Assembly: GCA_038064435.1 (NCBI GenBank)
Contig: JBBTTC010000004.1
Span: forward strand, 3,615 to 67,614
From: Patescibacteria group bacterium
GTDB lineage: Bacteria; Patescibacteriota; Minisyncoccia; Phycocordibacterales; JACOZG01
Direction: 5' to 3'
DNA: 64,000 nt
Shown piece after piece: positions 3,050 through 61,772 of the stretch. The notes below the pieces were generated by a model, which did not search any database, had not been told where the DNA came from, and saw nothing but the letters and a program-made list of their open reading frames with translations. The first letter of the stretch is position 1. Every line of letters begins with the position of its first letter. The position numbers and the translations under genes are program-made.

Positions 3050-3123
3050 TGCCGGCGGGAGGAATCGAACCTCCGACCTTGGGCTTATGAGTCCCACGCT
3101 CTAGCCAACTGAGCTACACCGGC
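3050..3123 (-). tRNA. tRNA-Met or tRNA-Ile2 (anticodon CAT), elongator type
   Basis: Minus-strand cloverleaf GCCGGTG...CTCATAA...TTCGATT...CGCCGGC. Confidence 0.75.
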
Positions 3124-3130
3124 AAAATCT

Positions 3131-3203
3131 TGTTGCGGGGGCCGGAATTGCACCGGCGCCTAGAGGTTATGAGCCTCTCGAGTTACTGCTTCTCTACCCC
3201 GCG
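3131..3203 (-). tRNA. tRNA-fMet-like (anticodon CAT), initiator-type acceptor
   Basis: CGCGGGG...CTCATAA...CCCCCGCAAC resembles E. coli initiator tRNA including a C1:A72 mismatch; D and T arms are atypical. Confidence 0.6.
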
Positions 3204-19832: not shown

Positions 19833-19919
19833 GGAGAGTTGGCTGAGTGGTCGAAAGCGCCTCACTGCTAACGAGGTAGGGGGTTACTCCCCTCGTGGGT
19901 TCGAATCCCACACTCTCCG
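19833..19919 (+). tRNA. tRNA-Ser (anticodon GCT)
   Basis: GGAGAGT acceptor, long variable arm, anticodon loop CTGCTAA, T-arm GGGTTCGAATCCC. Confidence 0.85.
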
Positions 19920-36156: not shown

Positions 36157-36399
36157 ATGTTTACGGTATATATTTTACAAAATCAAGTCGGAAAATTGTA
36201 TACTGGCCAAACAAAAAACTTTGAAACAAGGCTAATCGAACATAATGTGACTGGTCATGGCTATACTGCTAAACATCGCCCATGGAAGGTGGTGCTGATG
36301 GAAAAATACCAGAATCGCACCGAAGCGATGAAACGAGAAAAATATCTGAAAACTGGGGCGGGGCGCGACTGGATAAAAAGACAATTATTGCACGTGTAG
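36157..36399 (+). CDS. small GIY-YIG nuclease family protein (UPF0213/YhbQ-like)
   Basis: VYILQNQVGKLYTGQTKNFETRLIEHN fits the GIY-YIG core; stop codon lies inside the tRNA 5' end. Confidence 0.7.
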   Translation: MFTVYILQNQVGKLYTGQTKNFETRLIEHNVTGHGYTAKHRPWKVVLMEKYQNRTEAMKREKYLKTGAGRDWIKRQLLHV

Positions 36400-36461
36400 C
36401 TCAGCGGTAGAGTAGGCGTCTTATACACGCCCGGTCCCTGGTTCGAATCCAGGCACGTGCA
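36390..36461 (+). tRNA. tRNA-Ile (anticodon TAT, predicted to read AUA)
   Basis: Cloverleaf: acceptor GCACGTG/CACGTGC, anticodon stem GGCGT/ACGCC, loop CTTATAC, T-arm CCTGG-TTCGAAT-CCAGG. Confidence 0.7.
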
Positions 36462-38947: not shown

Positions 38948-39322
38948 GGGGATGATCGGCCTCGACATTTAGTGTTGCTGGTTCGGGCAGGTCGAGTTCT
39001 CTGGATACTCGTTAAACACCGGAAAAGCATAAGTGTAAACTTATCGTCTACGGGTAGTCGGGGTGTGGCTTCGCCATATCCTGTTACCCCCTCTTTCGCC
39101 TTAGGCTAAAGAGCATCAGCGCTGGAGACTTCCGATATCTGGACGCTGGTGTTATATCTTCGGGATAGTTGGCGCGACGCCTCGGCGCGCTGGCGAACCA
39201 TAGAGGCACAGATCGGGCGGGTTTTGACTGTTCGGCCCCGCTCGAACTTAATTAAACAGTCTAAGCTTGTAGATCGCACCACTAACCCTATTTGCACCCG
39301 GGTTCGATTCCCGGCATCTCCA
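38948..39322 (+). ncRNA. ssrA: tmRNA (ssrA)
   Basis: 5' GGGGATGATCGGCCTCGAC and 3' GGGTTCGATTCCCGGCATCTCCA pair into a tRNA-like domain; directly downstream of smpB; CCA not encoded; tag frame not resolved. Confidence 0.7.
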
Positions 39323-39338
39323 CTCATTAAAACATTAG

Positions 39339-51744: not shown

Positions 51745-52163
51745 TTAATTTGGCCGCCGGCCGCCTCAATGGCCGACCGAGCGCTAACCGACAGTTGGCA
51801 ACCGCTAACCACAAACTTTTTGCTCACGCGACCCGAGCCCAAAATCTTAACTCGAGCCGGGCCGCGACTAATTAAACCCTTAGCAACTAGGGTGACGGGA
51901 GAAATCTCGGCCCCCGCGTCAAATTGCCTTTCCAGATCATAGAGATTAACCACGGCCGCGGCCAACGTCACGAGTGGCGCGCTGTGACCACGTCGCTTGG
52001 GTAATTTTTTAATAATGTCACGTAGCTCGGGCCGAATGCGGTGGCCAGAACGGGCCTTTTGCCCCTTGGTGCCGCGGCCCGAAGTGGTACCGCGCTTGCC
52101 GCCACGGCCGATAATTTTACGGGACTTGTTGGGGCTCTGCTTTTTTAGTTGGTGTAATTGCAT
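51741..52163 (-). CDS. rplO: 50S ribosomal protein L15
   Basis: GRGGKRGTTSGRGTKGQKARSG. Confidence 0.9.
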   Translation of the reverse strand: MQLHQLKKQSPNKSRKIIGRGGKRGTTSGRGTKGQKARSGHRIRPELRDIIKKLPKRRGHSAPLVTLAAAVVNLYDLERQFDAGAEISPVTLVAKGLISRGPARVKILGSGRVSKKFVVSGCQLSVSARSAIEAAGGQIK

Positions 52164-53914: not shown

Positions 53915-54100
53915 TTACCACGAAGACTTTTTAACGCCCGGCAATTGACCGTCATTGGCCAATTCACGGAAACAAATACGACAGAGTGCAAAATCACGCA
54001 TAAAAGAACGCTTGCGACCGCAACGGAAACAGCGCCGCACCAAGCGGCTCGAAAACTTGGGCGGCTTGGCCGCCCGGGCAATGACCGAAGTCTTAGCCAT
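53915..54100 (-). CDS. rpsZ: 30S ribosomal protein S14 type Z (zinc-binding)
   Basis: 61 aa with CxxC...CxxC. Confidence 0.9.
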
Positions 54101-54171
54101 AAGCCGCTATGCTAGCAGGGTCACGGCCCGAAGTCAATACATTTTGGGCTTTTGTGTTAAAATGTGTCTTG

Positions 54172-54657
54172 ATGGGTAAGTTTAATTTCAAGGACGAGAA
54201 AGACCTTGCGACTGTTAAAGAAAAATCTGAAGCTTTCTATGGAAGTATTAAAAAAGTGCACTGCCCATATTTTGGAGAAAATGTTGTGTTCAATGCCAAA
54301 GGAATAAGACACTTAAAATTCAAGTCGGACGAACGAGCCCGCACCCGAGAAGATCAATATTCGCGGCTCAAGCTTATCCATTTAGCGCCGGAAGTGTTGA
54401 AGCTGTCCCGGACAGTACAAGGTATCTGGCATACGAAACGTTTTGAAATACAAAAAACCCACAGTCGGTGGGAAAAAATTCTTAAGAATGTTTCGTTTTA
54501 TGAATTTCTGGCGGTGCTGGATAGTGTTCGTATAAAAGTTATCGTCAAAGAGGTGGTCGGTGGAGAGAAACATTTTTGGAGCGTCATACCGTTTTGGGGT
54601 ATTGATAAAATTAACGGTAAAAGAATACTGCACGGAAACAAAACTGATCTGGAATAG
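54172..54657 (+). CDS. hypothetical protein, AT-rich gene inserted antisense within the spc ribosomal cluster
   Basis: 161-aa ORF with markedly lower GC than flanks; no recognised domain. Confidence 0.45.
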   Translation: MGKFNFKDEKDLATVKEKSEAFYGSIKKVHCPYFGENVVFNAKGIRHLKFKSDERARTREDQYSRLKLIHLAPEVLKLSRTVQGIWHTKRFEIQKTHSRWEKILKNVSFYEFLAVLDSVRIKVIVKEVVGGEKHFWSVIPFWGIDKINGKRILHGNKTDLE

Positions 54658-54794
54658 ACACTAAAAAATACCGCTCGTTGTGCGGCATTCTTTAGTGGTG
54701 CCTGGCTACAGCTTGGAATAGCCGTGACAGGGCAGGGCCCTCCAAGCACCGCTCCTATTCTAGCAAATCACAAATAAATCTTCAACAGACAAAC

Positions 54795-56267
54795 CTAGAA
54801 CACTGGAGCGGGGCAGGCCGGGAGTTTTTGGCCCAACCAGGGCTCATACACGCCGGCGCCGTTGAAGAGGTCAACCAGTCGCAAATAATCCTGATAGGTC
54901 ACCGTGCCACTGCGATCAATATCGCTTTGGTAGAGAGCAACACTTCCTACGCCATTAATGGCATTAGTAAGAGCACTAATATCCTTAGCATTTACTTCCC
55001 CATTGCCATCCACGTCCCCGGGCAAATATCCAAGACACACGCTGGTCTTGGTTGGCTTATTGGCAATTGAAACGCGTTCGCCCGGCTTTAGTGACCGCGA
55101 CAAGGAAACCTTGAAACTACGATATGGATAAACCGCTCCACTGTAATTCGCTCGAGTGACCACGACTGGATCGATAGCGTTGGAACTTATCACCGAAAAA
55201 GAGTCGGCTGTGATGTTGTACAAATCTGTCGAGTAAGTTAAATCTAAGATGTCATAACTTTCACCCGTTGGAGAACTTCGATCACCTCTTGGCGCAACAA
55301 AACTAGATCCGATCTGGGTACCATCCAGTTTTGATGGCTGGCGAGCATCAACAGAGCCGTTTGCCGGAGCAGATGATATAATAATCGGTCCGGTCAAATC
55401 AGTCCCGACTGTTGGTGGATACGTGGGCACAAGAGCAACATCGGCAGTTGAATCATAAATCTTGAAGTACGAATCACTGCGATCGCAAACTTCGCTACCA
55501 GTAACTGGATCACCTAGGCAAATACTCATTCTATAAACACCGGCAGGCACCTTCGAATCTCGATAACCCGCACCAACTGTCCAAGAAAAACCGCCTCTTT
55601 GATCTGGGGCCAAACCAAGCATGAGCGTGTAGGCCGCGAACGGAACGCCACTATTCTCGTCAGTTATCAAGCTAATATTAACAATCCGGTTTGCCGGAAC
55701 ATTAAAAGCGTTCCAGATTATCCTCTCTTGACTGCCAAGAAACCATCCTTCTCCACCATTGGGCGAAACAACTTTGATCGAAACAGGATTGGGTGGAAGT
55801 AAATTGCAAAGCAGACGATTCATGGCCGTGCGGGTTTGGGGGCCGACGTAGGCGATGTTGCCGGTGGCGCGCTCGAGAATATTATTTTGATCCTGGAACT
55901 TTTCGAGAGCGCGGAGAGTGATGCGGCCAAAAAAGCCGTAAGTGGCACCTTTGGGCAACTCAAACACGCCAGCCTTTTCTAAAGCCTTTTGCATTAAACG
56001 AATCTGGCGACTACCGCCGTAGTCTTCATCACCAAAAAACAGGTCTTGAGTAATGACCGAACACCGCTCGCTGGGAGGATAACCAATGGGATCGGGGACC
56101 GGAACATACGGCTGAGACGGAGTAGTCGGCCGGCTCACCGCCTGACTATTTAACAACATTATTAACTTCTGCAATTCACCGGCGCCAATAGTTTGCGCGC
56201 CAGCATTGGCTGAACCAAAAATTAGACCCACAGCCAAAAGAGCCAGTAAAATATATTTCTTTTTCAT
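54795..56267 (-). CDS. exported protein with PG-binding-1 domain, PNGGEGW repeat module and C-terminal dockerin-like repeats
   Basis: Signal peptide; peptidoglycan-binding helix region (GFFGRITLRALEKFQ); VVSPNGGEGW; dockerin-type DVDGNGEVNAKD / DIDRSGTVTYQD. Confidence 0.55.
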   Translation of the reverse strand: MKKKYILLALLAVGLIFGSANAGAQTIGAGELQKLIMLLNSQAVSRPTTPSQPYVPVPDPIGYPPSERCSVITQDLFFGDEDYGGSRQIRLMQKALEKAGVFELPKGATYGFFGRITLRALEKFQDQNNILERATGNIAYVGPQTRTAMNRLLCNLLPPNPVSIKVVSPNGGEGWFLGSQERIIWNAFNVPANRIVNISLITDENSGVPFAAYTLMLGLAPDQRGGFSWTVGAGYRDSKVPAGVYRMSICLGDPVTGSEVCDRSDSYFKIYDSTADVALVPTYPPTVGTDLTGPIIISSAPANGSVDARQPSKLDGTQIGSSFVAPRGDRSSPTGESYDILDLTYSTDLYNITADSFSVISSNAIDPVVVTRANYSGAVYPYRSFKVSLSRSLKPGERVSIANKPTKTSVCLGYLPGDVDGNGEVNAKDISALTNAINGVGSVALYQSDIDRSGTVTYQDYLRLVDLFNGAGVYEPWLGQKLPACPAPVF

Positions 56268-56281
56268 ATAACAAAATTATA

Positions 56282-56908
56282 TCACTTACCCTTCTTGAAA
56301 GGAAAGCCGATGGAGTGGAAAAAGTCGAGCGCCTCGGCTCGCGACTTGGCTGTGGTAACAATGGTGACAGCCAGCCCAAAAACGTCCTTGAGATCCTCAT
56401 CCGCCGTTTCCGGAAAAACGCTATGTTCGCGAACGCCAATAGTTAAATTTCCCACCTCATCAACACTTTTGTCGTCATAACCGCGAAAGTCCCGGGTACG
56501 CGGGATGGCAATATTAAGCAAACGATCGAGGAAATCATACATGCGCGCGCCACGCAAAGTAACCATATGGCCGATCACCTCGCCCTGCCGCACCTTAAAC
56601 GAGGCGACAGACTTCTTCGAGCCGCGGGGCGCGGCGCGCTGGCCGGTGATCTTGGTTAGCCTGTCAGCCACCAGTTCTTGACGTTTGGCCTCACGGAGCT
56701 TGCCAGTACCAGAACTAACCACCACCTTAACGAGGCGCGGCGCAGCCAGATCATTGGTCACGCCCAATTTAGTTTTAAGGGTCGGCCGAGCTTTAATAAT
56801 TTTGTCTTTGATCGGTATCATATTTAAATAGTCTGACCACAACGCCGACAAACGCGGGTCTTTTTGCCCGCCACTATTTTGGCGGCCAAACGCACGCCGC
56901 GCCGGCAA
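56282..56908 (-). CDS. rplE: 50S ribosomal protein L5
   Basis: L5 similarity; true start probably the internal Met near 56821 (MIPIKDK). Confidence 0.85.
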   Translation of the reverse strand: MPARRAFGRQNSGGQKDPRLSALWSDYLNMIPIKDKIIKARPTLKTKLGVTNDLAAPRLVKVVVSSGTGKLREAKRQELVADRLTKITGQRAAPRGSKKSVASFKVRQGEVIGHMVTLRGARMYDFLDRLLNIAIPRTRDFRGYDDKSVDEVGNLTIGVREHSVFPETADEDLKDVFGLAVTIVTTAKSRAEALDFFHSIGFPFKKGK

Positions 56909-57126
56909 TGACTGCAGTAGAGCATCACATTAGAGCGGTCAATTGGCCGAGCTACTTCCACCACTTCACCCTTTTGGCCGGCGCGGCGCGGCTTTTGCCG
57001 GCGCTTAACCAAACCTACGCCCTCCACCACCAAACGCGCGCCAACCACTTTGGCCACGGCGCCCTCGCGCCCGCGATCCTTACCGGCAATCACCTTAACC
57101 TTATCACCCTTTTTAATCGTCAACAT
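56824..57126 (-). CDS. rplX: 50S ribosomal protein L24 with C-terminal Cys4 extension
   Basis: KKGDKVKVIAGKDRG KOW motif; C-terminal CSHC...CRRC. Confidence 0.85.
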   Translation of the reverse strand: MLTIKKGDKVKVIAGKDRGREGAVAKVVGARLVVEGVGLVKRRQKPRRAGQKGEVVEVARPIDRSNVMLYCSHCRRGVRLAAKIVAGKKTRVCRRCGQTI

Positions 57127-57501: not shown

Positions 57502-57758
57502 GATGAAATTTTACTGACCACCACAAAATGCTTATGGCGGGAAAGCGGGCGAACCTCGCGGATTACCACTCTGTCACCCACCTTATACTCATTTTTCTCG
57601 TCATGCGCCTGATAACGCTTAGAGCGCTTCAGAAACTTGCCGTATTTGGGATGTTTAACAAAACGATTAACCCGCACAACTACGGTTTTGTCGGGCTTGT
57701 CCGACACGACCTCACCACGCCAACTGCGTCCACTATTATGTGTAAGTTTATGAGTCAT
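57498..57758 (-). CDS. rpsQ: 30S ribosomal protein S17
   Basis: GEVVSDKPDKTVVVRV...HDE. Confidence 0.9.
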   Translation of the reverse strand: MTHKLTHNSGRSWRGEVVSDKPDKTVVVRVNRFVKHPKYGKFLKRSKRYQAHDEKNEYKVGDRVVIREVRPLSRHKHFVVVSKISS

Positions 57759-57763
57759 ATCAT

Positions 57764-58183
57764 TTAGTGGCGGCTAATCACTTTGGTTTTAAGGGGTAAT
57801 TTGGTACCAGCTTTACGTAGAGTCTCACGGGCCACAGCGTCCTCCAAGCCATCAACCTCAAACAACACCCGACCCGGCCAAACCTCAAACTCATAGCCCT
57901 GCGGGTCGCCCTTGCCCTTACCCATGCCCACCTCGGCAGCTTTAGCCGTGTAGGGCTTATCAGGAAAAATGCGGATCCACAGTTTACCGCCCTTCTTCAT
58001 TTGCCGCACAATGGCCTTGCGCGATGATTCAATTTGATTCGAGCGGATCCGGCCAGCGCTCTGAGCCTTCAGACCGTGCGAACCAAAAGATAAGCTCAAA
58101 CCGCGCGTCTCTAGTCGCGGCTTGTTGGGATTGCGGCGCATCGTGTGCCACTTGCGATATTTAACTTTTTTAGGAAAAAGCAT
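57764..58183 (-). CDS. rplP: 50S ribosomal protein L16
   Basis: MLFPKKVKYRK. Confidence 0.9.
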   Translation of the reverse strand: MLFPKKVKYRKWHTMRRNPNKPRLETRGLSLSFGSHGLKAQSAGRIRSNQIESSRKAIVRQMKKGGKLWIRIFPDKPYTAKAAEVGMGKGKGDPQGYEFEVWPGRVLFEVDGLEDAVARETLRKAGTKLPLKTKVISRH

Positions 58184-59181: not shown

Positions 59182-59541
59182 TTATTTACTATCCGCACCA
59201 ACCTTCTTTTCCGCCACCACGTCTTTGGCGGCCTTAGCGGCGGCAATCTCGGCCTCCTTCTTTTTCATCTCCAACTCCTTTTGCATTTTACCGCCATGAC
59301 GTAGGAACTTGCGCGTCGGCGCAAATTCGCCCAAACGATGCCCGACCATCTCTTCCGCCACCAATACCGGCAAGTGAGCTCGGCCATTATGCACGCCAAA
59401 GGTAAAACCAACCATCTCGGGTGTGATCTGGCTAGCGCGCGACCAAGTGTTTAGCACCCCCACTTGATCCGGTTTGCGACCGTGAATCTTTTTTAGCAGT
59501 TTGGGATGAGTAAACGGCCCCTTGTGTAGTGAACGAGTCAT
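59182..59541 (-). CDS. rpsS: 30S ribosomal protein S19 (Lys/Ala-rich C-terminal extension)
   Basis: SLHKGPF...NGRAHLPV; about 30 extra C-terminal residues. Confidence 0.9.
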
Positions 59542-59592
59542 AAATTAGAGTCGGCGCTAATACTAAGTAAACCAGACAATACTGTCAAACCA

Positions 59593-60435
59593 CTAGGCGC
59601 GGCGGCGGCTCTGGCGCCGCGAAACAACAAACACCTGTGAATATTTCTTAACCGGGCGAGTTTTGCGACCACCAGTAACCTTGCCCCACAGGGTCTTGGG
59701 TCGCCGCGTACCACGACCTTGTCGACCCTCACCGCCACCATAGGGATGATCGACCGGATTCATGGCTGAACCACGCACCGTGGGTCTTACACCCAACCAT
59801 CGTGAGCGGCCAGCCTTACCCAATTTAATCAGTTTGTTGCTGTCGTTGGACACGGCACCAATACTGGCCCAAGCATTTTCATTAATTCTTCGCACTTCAG
59901 TTGAAGGCAACTTCACATTAGTGTAACCAGAATCATTTGATAGCACTTCAGCAAAATTGCCCGCTGACCGTACCAGTTTGGCCCCGCCCCGAGGCTGAAT
60001 TTCTATATTATAAACAAAGCTACCAACTGGAATCTTTTTGAGTGGCAAACGATTGCCCGGACGAATATCGGCCGACTCGGCCACCAACACCTTGGAGCCC
60101 GGCGGAAGGTCAGCCGGAGCCAAAACATAGCGCCGCTCACCGTCGGCGTAACACAATCGAGCGATAAAACCCGAGCGATTGGGGTCATATTCCGTGGTCT
60201 CCACTACCGCCGGGATATTAATTTTGTTGTAATACCAGTCAATCGTTCGAAAACGACGCTTGTGGCCACCACCTTTATGGCGAACGGTAATTCGCCCCGC
60301 ACGATTGCGACCAACGCCGCGTTTAAAACCGCTAGTTAAAGACCGAAGCGGCTGCACCCCGGGGGTTAAATGCTCCCGGTAAGGTATGGTGACGGTGTGG
60401 CGTGTAGATGGAGTGCGTGGTCGACGAGTTTTCAT
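59593..60435 (-). CDS. rplB: 50S ribosomal protein L2
   Basis: 280 aa; GGGHKRRFR and C-terminal GRNRAG-like region. Confidence 0.95.
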   Translation of the reverse strand: MKTRRPRTPSTRHTVTIPYREHLTPGVQPLRSLTSGFKRGVGRNRAGRITVRHKGGGHKRRFRTIDWYYNKINIPAVVETTEYDPNRSGFIARLCYADGERRYVLAPADLPPGSKVLVAESADIRPGNRLPLKKIPVGSFVYNIEIQPRGGAKLVRSAGNFAEVLSNDSGYTNVKLPSTEVRRINENAWASIGAVSNDSNKLIKLGKAGRSRWLGVRPTVRGSAMNPVDHPYGGGEGRQGRGTRRPKTLWGKVTGGRKTRPVKKYSQVFVVSRRQSRRRA

Positions 60436-60698: not shown

Positions 60699-61432
60699 GA
60701 TAAACGCTTGGTTAAAACCTCCAAACTAGCCAACGGTTCAGTTACCACTAAATATTTATAAGTTATGAGATCACTCGGATTAACCTGACGTGTTTCCTGC
60801 ATGAGAACAGAAGAAAAATTACGAAAACTCTGACGAGTGGCCGTTGCCACCGTGGGCATGGCGATCAGCGCCCGCTTACCGGCCTGATAGTTAATTTTGT
60901 TAAACCCGGTAATCTTGGACCACGCCGACAAATAACCACGGGCCACCTTGGTTTTGGGGGCGGCCAAAGTTAAGTGATCAACAAACAATACTTCCCCATC
61001 GCGCCACTTTTGCGCCAAAAGAGTGCGCACAGCTTCAATCGTCATTTTTTTATTAACCGTCCGAGCATAGTTGCGCTCCTTGGTTGGACCATGAGTCGCG
61101 CCACCACCACGCCAAATGGGCGAACGAATCGAGCCATGACGTGCCCGACCAGTGCCCTTTTGCCGCCACGGCTTTTTGCCCCCGCCAGCCACCTCACCTC
61201 GACCCTTGGTGTGGGCCGTGCCGCGGCGGTGAGAAGTTTTTTCAGCCATAATCACCTGATGTACTAGGTCGGGCTTCCACGGGGCAGAAAAAATCTCCGC
61301 CGGCAGTTTAATCTGCCCAGACTCTTGGCCCTCTTGATTGTAGACTTTAGCTTCCATATTTAATCTCCAGCTTACCGCCACGGCGACCAGGTACAGCGCC
61401 ACGGAGCAAAAGCTCGCCACGCACCGGATCAA
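60695..61432 (-). CDS. rplD: 50S ribosomal protein L4
   Basis: L4 similarity; probable start at the internal Met near 61357. Confidence 0.85.
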   Translation of the reverse strand: MIRCVASFCSVALYLVAVAVSWRLNMEAKVYNQEGQESGQIKLPAEIFSAPWKPDLVHQVIMAEKTSHRRGTAHTKGRGEVAGGGKKPWRQKGTGRARHGSIRSPIWRGGGATHGPTKERNYARTVNKKMTIEAVRTLLAQKWRDGEVLFVDHLTLAAPKTKVARGYLSAWSKITGFNKINYQAGKRALIAMPTVATATRQSFRNFSSVLMQETRQVNPSDLITYKYLVVTEPLASLEVLTKRLS

Positions 61433-61772
61433 CCACCAACACCGTCAAATTGCGCACCGTCACTCGCTGGCCGCCCATGCGGCCGGCCATGCGCATACCT
61501 TTCGGCACGCGAGTGCGTAAACCGCCGCCGATACTACCCGGCTCGCGCTCGGAATGCTTTTGCCCGTGGGTACGCGGACCACCAGCAAAGCCGTGCCGCT
61601 TAACCACGCCCTGAAAACCCTTGCCCTTGGAAATGCCGCGGACGGCCACCGCATCGCCCGGCGCAAACATATCGGCGGCCACTTCGCCACCCACAATCGT
61701 CGCCGTCTCGGCCCGGCCGTCGGTACTAAAGACTCGGGTCATACCCTTTTTTATACCCACAAAGTGCTTCAT
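61347..61772 (-). CDS. rplC: 50S ribosomal protein L3 (shortened form)
   Basis: KKGMTRVF N-terminus and SKGKGFQGVVKRHGF core; only 141 aa. Confidence 0.85.
   Translation of the reverse strand: MKHFVGIKKGMTRVFSTDGRAETATIVGGEVAADMFAPGDAVAVRGISKGKGFQGVVKRHGFAGGPRTHGQKHSEREPGSIGGGLRTRVPKGMRMAGRMGGQRVTVRNLTVLVVDPVRGELLLRGAVPGRRGGKLEIKYGS

Follow-up and report, generated by a model that had tools for sequence, protein, structure and literature searches.

The window analysed here is a 64,000-nucleotide (nt) stretch of DNA from a Patescibacteria group bacterium (GenBank assembly GCA_038064435.1, contig JBBTTC010000004.1, positions 3,615 to 67,614 of the forward strand), which carries an S10-spc ribosomal-protein cluster on its minus strand. 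Our subject is the gap between two genes of this cluster, rplE and rpsZ, and above all a protein gene and a small RNA (sRNA) gene that converge within it. The upstream ribosomal-protein block ends with rplE (uL5; 56282-56821, minus strand; Pfam Ribosomal_L5 and L5_C). Its start was set at the ATG at 56821 (MIPIKDK); the open reading frame (ORF) is open to 56908, but rplX (56824-57126, minus strand, from the ORF list) ends at 56824. The downstream block, rpsZ-rpsH-rplF-rplR-rpsE-rplO-secY, is headed by rpsZ (zinc-ribbon uS14; 53915-54100, minus strand; Pfam Ribosomal_S14 and ORF list). Between rplE and rpsZ lie 2181 nt with a gene for a 490-amino-acid (aa) protein, X490 (54795-56267, minus strand), starting 14 nt past the rplE stop codon, and a gene for a 161-aa protein, Y161 (54172-54657), on the plus strand, opposite to the ribosomal-protein genes. 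The X490/Y161 spacer measures 137 nt and the Y161/rpsZ spacer 71 nt. A previous sequence-only reading of this DNA had described two genes splitting rplE from rpsZ, and it was right about gene content and strands. The stretch that it reported begins at 54109, an upstream in-frame ATG; all 564 homologues begin with MGKFNF, which places the true start at 54172. The third gene, which that reading did not see, is an sRNA gene of about 90 nt on the minus strand of the 137-nt spacer.

The locus is not an assembly chimera: the X490 gene is present on at least eight independently assembled contigs from several samples, and the three contigs compared (loci are cited here by L numbers; L204-L206) are 99.97-100% identical to the window over 3.6 kb; L205 and L206 derive from H41 samples of the Hainich aquifer wells. 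Neither a target-site duplication nor terminal inverted repeats flanking the module were found in the window, and no tandem repeats were seen around the sRNA region.

Alignment of the flanks of Y161 from four genomes revealed, just past the stop codon, a block of about 95 nt whose conservation exceeds that of the coding sequence. The minus strand of this block folds at -49 kcal/mol (z = -5.3), compared with -35 kcal/mol (z = -1.7) for the plus strand, on which Y161 is encoded. A 27-nt exact pattern taken from the block retrieved 111 metagenome loci (RNA-anchored loci), and 89 unique sRNA loci, 84 of them from the pattern scan, were then compared, their promoters being read by eye from the aligned sequences. 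All 89 have a -35 element near TTGACA and an extended -10 element (TGnTAtAaT), followed after about 6-7 nt by the start of helix P1, and end in a 3' GC hairpin with a U-tract. In the window, the predicted promoter (54757-54785, minus strand; promoter scan) consists of the -35 element TTGAAG (54780-54785), a 17-nt spacer, and the extended -10 element TGC-TAGAAT (54757-54765). Fold and covariation together indicate a three-way junction as the sRNA core (54697-54750), with helices P1 GGUGCUUGG/CCAGGCACC (54742-54750 with 54697-54705), P2 AGGGC-CCU-GCCCU (54729-54741), and P3 ACGGC...GCUGU (54708-54725), all on the minus strand. A predicted intrinsic terminator of bidirectional type, ACUAAAGAAUGCCGC-ACAACGA-GCGGUAUUUUUUAGU in RNA sense (54660-54696, both strands), follows the core and begins 3 nt past the Y161 stop codon.

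In an alignment of 83 of these RNAs, 96.6% of the cells at helix positions are paired, against 34-52% in slid controls. Both partners vary in 16 of the 34 pairs, and none of 500 shuffles reaches any of five measures, in a set where 78 of the 83 RNAs came via the exact pattern, so that the 5' strands of P1 and P3 and the whole of P2 are predetermined in them. In the terminator, 9 of the 15 pairs of helices 4 and 5 covary. The transcribed strand follows from the frequent G-U pairs (80 of the 83 sequences have one at pair 35-61), since these would read as A-C mismatches if the opposite strand were the RNA. A covariance model (R1) has a single hit in the window (54659-54753, minus strand; 86.4 bits, E = 1e-19). 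With a conserved sigma-70 promoter, an intrinsic terminator and a structure supported by covariation, subject to the retrieval bias just given, the element has the features expected of an independently transcribed bacterial sRNA.

Rfam 15 contains no family for this sRNA, either in the whole window at gathering level or in segments of 2.6 kb and 161 nt at E <= 5-10; the two E-value scans returned terminator-type models only, at most 16 bits. The gathering-level matches in the window are a transfer-messenger RNA (tmRNA; 38948-39325, plus strand) and five tRNA genes (302-375 and 3050-3203, minus strand; 19833-19919 and 36390-36461, plus strand). Known RNA classes were also compared. The signal recognition particle RNA was rejected for want of the GNRA-capped helix 8 motifs, and hammerhead and other small ribozymes because their catalytic core needs longer junctions than the 1, 3 and 2 nt of this sRNA; tRNA-like, 6S and Y RNAs were likewise considered and set aside. 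No report of this sRNA was found in the open-access papers searched. As a separate observation, a DnaA-box-like 9-mer (TTATCCACA/TGTGGATAA, at most one mismatch, either orientation) was found in 62 of 87 unique loci (L003, L089, L102 and 59 others) and in 2 of 72 control regions. It lies at or slightly ahead of the sRNA -35 element, 40-70 nt before the RNA 5' end, and is absent at the window copy (54786-54830).

The sRNA and Y161 genes are tightly linked. Y161 converges on the sRNA at a fixed distance in 101 of the 111 RNA-anchored loci, and the remaining loci lie at contig ends or have another gene in the same slot. Starting from the protein, we found the sRNA in all ten distinct protein-anchored loci, with Y161 identities of 70, 68, 63, 50, 40, 39, 32, 31, 29, and 27%; two of these loci, lying outside the training set of the covariance model, were found by it at 53 and 32.5 bits. 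In the distant loci P1 has undergone compensatory changes, P2 is capped by other stable tetraloops, and P3 contains an insertion. Y161 relatives lacking the sRNA were not seen. Loss in the other direction does occur. The sRNA remains intact beside truncated copies of Y161 (L095/L138, L127, and L180/L182), and in six loci (L093, L166, L128, L152, L146, and L117) the Y161 slot holds another convergent gene, encoding an NYN-domain protein (two loci), a DUF3800 protein, RusA or a fragment of an AntA antirepressor, or the sRNA adjoins hsdM directly. Genes of the DUF3800 family are associated with several orphan RNA motifs, as Rfam naming reflects. Such one-sided decay, in which the RNA is kept and Y161 is lost, is as expected if the RNA is the protective partner. 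We infer that Y161 and the sRNA are inherited as one unit that would act as a protein-RNA pair.

Because it has 564 homologues of near-constant length (about 161 aa), with 63-79% identity, the 161-aa ORF is a real gene. One protein with 100% identity to Y161 is annotated as coming from a Patescibacteria group bacterium. Source names of the homologues include Zambryskibacteria, Daviesbacteria, Azambacteria, Nealsonbacteria, Kaiserbacteria, Magasanikbacteria and Paceibacterota. An exhaustive search yielded 586 clusters at 50% identity, nearly all of them stand-alone proteins of 150-170 aa, and no informative domain fusions were found among the longer family members. The window protein itself has no match in Pfam (E <= 0.1) or NCBIfam and only a marginal one in PHROGs (E = 0.03). 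Among 34 homologues, however, 24 match LPD3 (PF18798) at E <= 0.01 over the whole profile, and two pass its gathering score of 27 bits with the full profile (P0044, 28.0 bits; P0055, 27.5 bits). An AlphaFold2 model of Y161 (predicted local distance difference test score, pLDDT, 81; predicted template modelling score, pTM, 0.76) shows helices followed by a long beta-meander. Its best Foldseek matches in BFVD are two LPD3-annotated proteins, with probabilities of 0.97 (query template modelling score, TMq, 0.45) and 0.90 (TMq 0.48) and weak E-values of 0.05-0.3; against the Protein Data Bank (PDB), a sequence profile search returned nothing meaningful and Foldseek nothing below E = 0.2. The remote-homology and structure predictions that the sequence-only reading had proposed for this protein thus gave an LPD3-like fold, with weak sequence similarity in its homologues. 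On the modelled structure and these profile matches, Y161 is a stand-alone LPD3-like alpha/beta protein, belonging to, or very near, the LPD3 superfamily. LPD3 is a domain of the polyvalent proteins of phages and conjugative elements (Iyer et al. 2017, PMC5512222). The Y161 family resembles it in fold and in weak similarity across the full profile, and differs in being a stand-alone chromosomal protein of Patescibacteria with an obligate sRNA neighbour, whereas LPD3 is part of giant multi-domain proteins. Nothing specific on the Y161 family or on LPD3 function was found in the open-access papers searched.

The description of the Y161 gene as AT-rich and foreign-looking stood up. Its guanine-plus-cytosine (GC) content is 0.401, against 0.498 for the window, placing it at the 1.7th percentile of stretches of the same size, and its relatives lie elsewhere in unrelated contexts: after obg, beside a cation ATPase and methylase/AIPR genes, or after a Bro-N gene. 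No relatives were found in IMG/VR, GenBank phages or PLSDB plasmids. On this basis the Y161 gene appears to have been horizontally acquired. In addition, an independently assembled contig from the same population (L205:5600-6170, equivalent to window 54172-54657) differs from the window over 3.6 kb by one single-nucleotide polymorphism, which is a nonsense change at the invariant Y161 residue G44 (GGA to TGA); as coverage of L205 is about 4x, this could be a sequencing error and is a hint only.

The usual surroundings of the pair are type I restriction-modification (R-M) operons. In 37 loci a sizeable ORF abuts the start of Y161, and in 21 of these the ORF directly upstream encodes HsdM. Two loci (L097 and L109) preserve the complete operon order hsdM-Y161-<sRNA-hsdS-hsdR, in which the sRNA gene points back towards Y161. 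Across 123 loci, many on contigs of only 1-3 kb, HsdM is present in 26, HsdS in 19, and HsdR in 9. By comparison, no hsd genes were found in the 64-kb window, and L5 or S14 lies beside none of the 111 RNA-anchored loci, so that the window copy is a solo module in an unusual place. In metagenome-assembled genomes (MAGs) from aquifers, R-M systems have been reported to travel on genomic islands, with horizontal gene transfer mainly among Patescibacteria (PMC12455944). Several further genes were noticed near other copies of the pair. Two ORFs without a Pfam match (297 and 164 aa) lie between the sRNA and hsdS in L097 (4119-5555), and also in L173 and L194; L097 has a PemK toxin gene between hsdS and hsdR as well. 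On a 719-kb Paceibacterota contig, a pair resembling a diversity-generating retroelement (bAvd and an RVT_1 reverse transcriptase; L001:8016-9414) lies about 1.5 kb downstream of Y161 and the sRNA.

The remaining gene of the gap, X490, encodes a protein with an N-terminal signal peptide, MKKKYILLALLAVGLIFGSANA, read from the sequence by eye, a Kre9/KNH-like 'SPNGGEGW' segment and a C-terminal type I dockerin. The peptidoglycan-binding domain and the dockerin proposed earlier both exceed the Pfam cut-offs (PG_binding_1, 23.7 bits against 23; Dockerin_1, 30.6 bits against 22.9), and the motif PNGGEGW, previously called a repeat, occurs once. Only eight homologues were found, the best with 40% identity over 62% of the query, and PADLOC-DB 2.0 gave no match at E <= 0.1. 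The GC content of X490 (0.489) is near the genome average. The closest relative (L008) has a different, 174-aa secreted protein in the same place and orientation. As far as its predicted domains and few homologues indicate, X490 is a fast-evolving, lineage-specific and nearly orphan secreted protein that binds the wall or surface. Since only 14 nt separate it from rplE, it is probably co-transcribed with that gene, apart from any transcript from a putative promoter of its own described below.

We then compared the rplE|rpsZ junction in 80 rplE loci from the closest species-level genomes, whose L5 proteins are 55-71% identical to that of the window and whose neighbouring genes were placed by tblastn. 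The gap could be measured in 56 relatives, where its median is about 445 nt (interquartile range 128-1376); it exceeds 150 nt in 40 of them and 500 nt in 27. The statement that rpsZ follows rplE directly in essentially all bacteria therefore fails in this lineage. In the other 24 loci rpsZ was not found in the available sequence; nine of these contigs stop 302 nt or less past rplE, and six extend at least 4.9 kb without rpsZ. By comparison, the median gap is 2-13 nt at 9 of 14 other junctions. Neighbouring medians are 6.5-11 nt for L24->L5, 8 nt for S14->S8 and 13 nt for S8->L6, and no gap there exceeds 500 nt; L22|S3 and S3|L16 have medians of 24-39 nt and L18|S5 one of 160 nt. Gap contents are mostly unrelated to each other, 115 of the 142 compared proteins (135 gap ORFs and seven window queries) being singletons. 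By inspection, the gap ORFs include PemK, HicAB and RelE modules, an IS200-type transposase (TnpA), guanylate kinase, pilins, and very large secreted proteins, and a pair of cmk and truB-like genes occupies the gap in four or five genomes. Some relatives have unrelated housekeeping blocks (NusG-L11 or adk-map) after rplE, which means that the rplE and rpsZ blocks are fully disconnected there. Neither X490 nor Y161 was found in the gap of any of the 80 relatives; a lineage-wide sharing of both genes at this position, which the sequence-only reading had allowed for, is thus not seen.

A predicted promoter of rpsZ and the block behind it lies at 54109-54137 on the minus strand (promoter scan), with the -35 element TTGACT (54132-54137), a 17-nt spacer, and TGC-TAGCAT (54109-54117) ending 8 nt ahead of the ATG. 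An internal promoter had been foreseen in the earlier interpretation. Equivalent promoters, with at least 9 of 12 matches, precede rpsZ in 14 of the 56 relatives, some of which have a gap of only 48-135 nt. The canonical spc order, with rplE adjoining rpsZ in one transcription unit, is thus replaced here by an arrangement with a predicted terminator and a predicted promoter between the two genes. Given the variable gap and the promoter before rpsZ, we read rplE|rpsZ, from these gene arrangements, as the border between two transcription units in this branch of Patescibacteria and as a site where inserted genes turn over rapidly.

It was further observed that rpsZ, Y161 and X490 each have an extended -10-like element (TGn with TAGCAT, TAAAAT and TATAAT, respectively) exactly 8 nt ahead of the ATG (54101-54117, 54155-54171 and 56268-56284, read from the sequence), and none of the three has an obvious Shine-Dalgarno sequence. 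This combination suggests that their mRNAs may be leaderless. For Y161, the TAAAAT hexamer (54158-54163, plus strand) is a putative promoter element, and some of the homologous loci have a similar -10 element 8-11 nt ahead of the ATG. No promoter is shared across Y161 loci; many copies are instead translationally coupled to hsdM. For X490, TATAAT with TGn (56276-56281, minus strand) overlaps the rplE stop codon and may provide an additional, leaderless promoter.

In the Gammaproteobacteria and Bacilli, the ribosomal-protein cluster is very stable, and changes fall between operons and not inside them; where it breaks up elsewhere, small insertions at operon boundaries come first and disconnection later (Brandis 2021, PMC8046335). 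Our case is similar in that a few genes are inserted at a boundary and the blocks have later separated in some genomes. It is different in that the boundaries, rplE|rpsZ and a second one at rplB|rpsS, are both intra-operon in E. coli and Bacillus, and that turnover is far higher in this lineage. The second soft junction was noticed in the relatives (L008-L087), where the median rplB->rpsS distance is 609 nt, 24 of 36 distances exceed 300 nt, and in many loci rplB is missing from the roughly 2 kb upstream of rpsS; the window has kept this junction intact, with 51 nt between the genes (59541-59593). No account of variability at rplE|rpsZ or rplB|rpsS in Patescibacteria was found in the open-access papers searched. 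An operon-boundary hotspot with accessory cargo is ordinary in principle; what is new is the position of the boundary and the rate of turnover.

On balance, we think it probable that the locus is a boundary hotspot holding X490, the sRNA and a horizontally acquired Y161 gene, and that the sRNA and Y161 form an accessory protein-RNA module. Under this account, X490 would be read with or just after rplE, the sRNA would be made from its own strong promoter, and Y161 would converge on the sRNA. Transcripts from rplE-X490 and from the sRNA gene would both stop at the terminator at 54660-54696, where the Y161 mRNA would stop from the other side, and rpsZ and the following genes would restart from their own promoter. 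With a shared terminator and a separate rpsZ promoter, the cargo would be insulated and need not disturb ribosomal-protein expression. The usual home of the pair would be between hsdM and hsdS of type I R-M operons, or other island-like regions, with a solo copy here. The pair is probably a horizontally acquired accessory module, possibly of toxin-antitoxin (TA) type, its function being a prediction. An abundant structured sRNA could bind or counteract either Y161 or its mRNA at the 3' end, much as an RNA antitoxin, or a regulator of a defence-linked effector, would. The near-consensus promoter, the conserved fold, the one-sided persistence and the defence-island context are our reasons for proposing, tentatively, that the sRNA controls Y161 as an antitoxin-like RNA or as a regulator of an R-M-linked effector.

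Comparison with known systems bears on this proposal. In type I TA pairs such as txpA/RatA and bsrG/SR4 of Bacillus subtilis, a convergent antisense sRNA overlaps the 3' end of the toxin gene. The Y161 locus is similar in its converging protein and sRNA genes, strong sRNA promoter, shared 3' terminator region and island- or prophage-like sites, and in an RNA that outlasts the decaying protein gene. On the other hand, type I toxins are membrane or hydrophobic peptides of fewer than 60 aa, whereas Y161 is predicted to be a soluble 161-aa LPD3-like alpha/beta protein. In addition, the sRNA keeps a conserved three-way junction outside the antisense overlap, and this suggests protein binding rather than pure antisense pairing. 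In type III systems (ToxIN and CptIN), a tandem-repeat RNA antitoxin lies upstream of, and co-directional with, an endoribonuclease toxin. Likeness here lies in the association with defence and in a structured RNA that would neutralise a protein by direct binding; the sRNA, however, is single-copy and convergent with Y161, and nothing marks Y161 as an endoribonuclease. The missing tandem repeats and the convergent orientation exclude type III. Accessory genes are also known from type I R-M loci, namely that of the anticodon nuclease PrrC in the EcoprrI locus and the rlo genes of Campylobacter. The Y161-sRNA unit likewise sits between hsd genes of an otherwise complete type I operon, and this position makes a second line of defence or a regulator plausible. 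Unlike those genes, it has an sRNA gene and also occurs away from R-M systems, and no sequence or domain similarity to them was found.

Several points weigh against the account that we favour. Visible linkage to R-M genes is confined to about a quarter to a half of the loci, and the promoter before rpsZ is detectable in only about a quarter of relatives. Promoters, terminator and the sRNA itself are all predictions from sequence. Owing to retrieval by an exact pattern, covariation in the RNA core comes mainly from five distant sequences, plus wobble changes. The sRNA and the Y161 mRNA would overlap by the terminator of about 37 nt only, far less than in classical type I pairs; in L199 and L210 the terminator overlaps the end of the Y161 ORF. 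Y161 of the window has no match among the PADLOC-DB 2.0 defence models at E <= 0.1. Iyer et al. 2017 (PMC5512222) did not count LPD3 with the LPDs that they regarded as putatively enzymatic, so that toxin activity of Y161 is not indicated. Moreover, an identity of 63-79% across named candidate phyla is unusually high for a toxin-like or defence gene and fits a core function equally well. Finally, the DnaA-box-like motif hints at cell-cycle control, for which the proposed mechanism has no explanation.

The last two points would be at home in a different account, in which Y161 and the sRNA are a core, vertically inherited ribonucleoprotein of Patescibacteria, for example in RNA processing or linked to the cell cycle, and the position beside rpsZ reflects ordinary shuffling. 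A mean column identity of 76% at constant length over many candidate phyla, conservation of the RNA in both sequence and structure, the DnaA-box-like motif ahead of the sRNA promoter (in 62 of 87 loci, compared with 2 of 72 controls), and the absence of Y161 from the phage, plasmid, and viral collections searched all agree with it. We nevertheless consider it unlikely, because copies of the pair lie within type I R-M operons or next to phage-like and defence genes, truncated and nonsense copies of Y161 exist, and the sRNA stands without Y161 in at least eight loci. The atypically low GC content of Y161 in the window also disagrees with it, as does, more weakly, the number of clusters (only about 600 among 5.8 billion proteins), which is few for a universal gene in so heavily sampled a group.

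A further possibility is that the sRNA is a cis regulator or insulator of type I R-M operons, supplying an antisense promoter and a bidirectional terminator that part hsdM from hsdS-hsdR. Y161 would then be an R-M accessory protein (in restriction alleviation or specificity), and the window copy a leftover of a decayed island. The recurrent hsdM-Y161-<sRNA-hsdS-hsdR order speaks for this, as do L117, in which the sRNA directly follows hsdM without Y161, and L109, in which the sRNA promoter diverges from hsdS about 90 nt away; R-M islands are moreover known mobile cargo in Patescibacteria (PMC12455944). However, 53 of the 68 loci with enough flank have no hsdM directly upstream (by single-query tblastn), the window has no hsd genes in 64 kb, and away from R-M operons the sRNA has NYN, DUF3800 and RusA genes as partners as well. 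A conserved three-way junction likewise exceeds what an insulator or terminator needs, and we judge this explanation quite improbable.

The suggestion of the sequence-only reading, namely a one-off foreign insertion in a single spc transcription unit that perturbs ribosomal-protein stoichiometry through read-through or convergent transcription, has in its favour the genuine antisense orientation and foreign composition of Y161 and the stability of the cluster in Gammaproteobacteria and Bacilli (PMC8046335), but it is very hard to maintain, since the junction varies across the lineage, the arrangement is stable and identical in several samples, rpsZ has its own predicted promoter here and in relatives even without an insert, and a bidirectional terminator (54660-54696) parts the converging transcripts.

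Besides the features of the gap, some other peculiarities of the ribosomal-protein cluster were recorded. The rpmC gene (uL29) is missing from the window, where 5 nt separate rplP from rpsQ (57758-57764); in most relatives this gap is about 221 nt, which fits rpmC. There is also no rpmD (uL30) between rpsE and rplO, which overlap (52145-52163), and absence of uL30 is a trait of the Candidate Phyla Radiation (CPR). The uL3 (rplC) ORF (61347-61772) is only 141 aa long and overlaps the long ORF called for rplD. Lineage-specific loss of uL29 and a short uL3 without its internal region have both been reported for the CPR (PMC9297842).

The ribosomal-protein cluster serves as a fixed syntenic marker in the binning and phylogenomics of CPR/Patescibacteria, and it has two soft junctions in this group, described here, at which contigs often end and foreign genes collect. 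They matter both for the curation of MAGs and for how streamlined genomes gain accessory genes beside highly expressed operons. The foremost new element of the locus is the sRNA-LPD3 module, and the sRNA gene is the most valuable content of the region: it represents a widespread, strongly conserved sRNA family not in Rfam that is tied to an LPD3-like protein family and to type I R-M operons. It is conceivable, though we hold it at less than even confidence, that Y161 and the three-way-junction sRNA are an undescribed protein-RNA system of Patescibacteria, in which a defence- or R-M-linked effector is checked or guided by a structured RNA, and would represent an RNA-antitoxin-like module of a new class; separately, rplE|rpsZ and rplB|rpsS would be unrecognised integration hotspots that divide the supposedly universal ribosomal-protein cluster in this lineage. 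If the module is indeed defence- or TA-like, it would give a phylum regarded as poor in defences an additional RNA-protein system, and it would provide a first functional lead on LPD3 as carried by the polyvalent proteins of phages.

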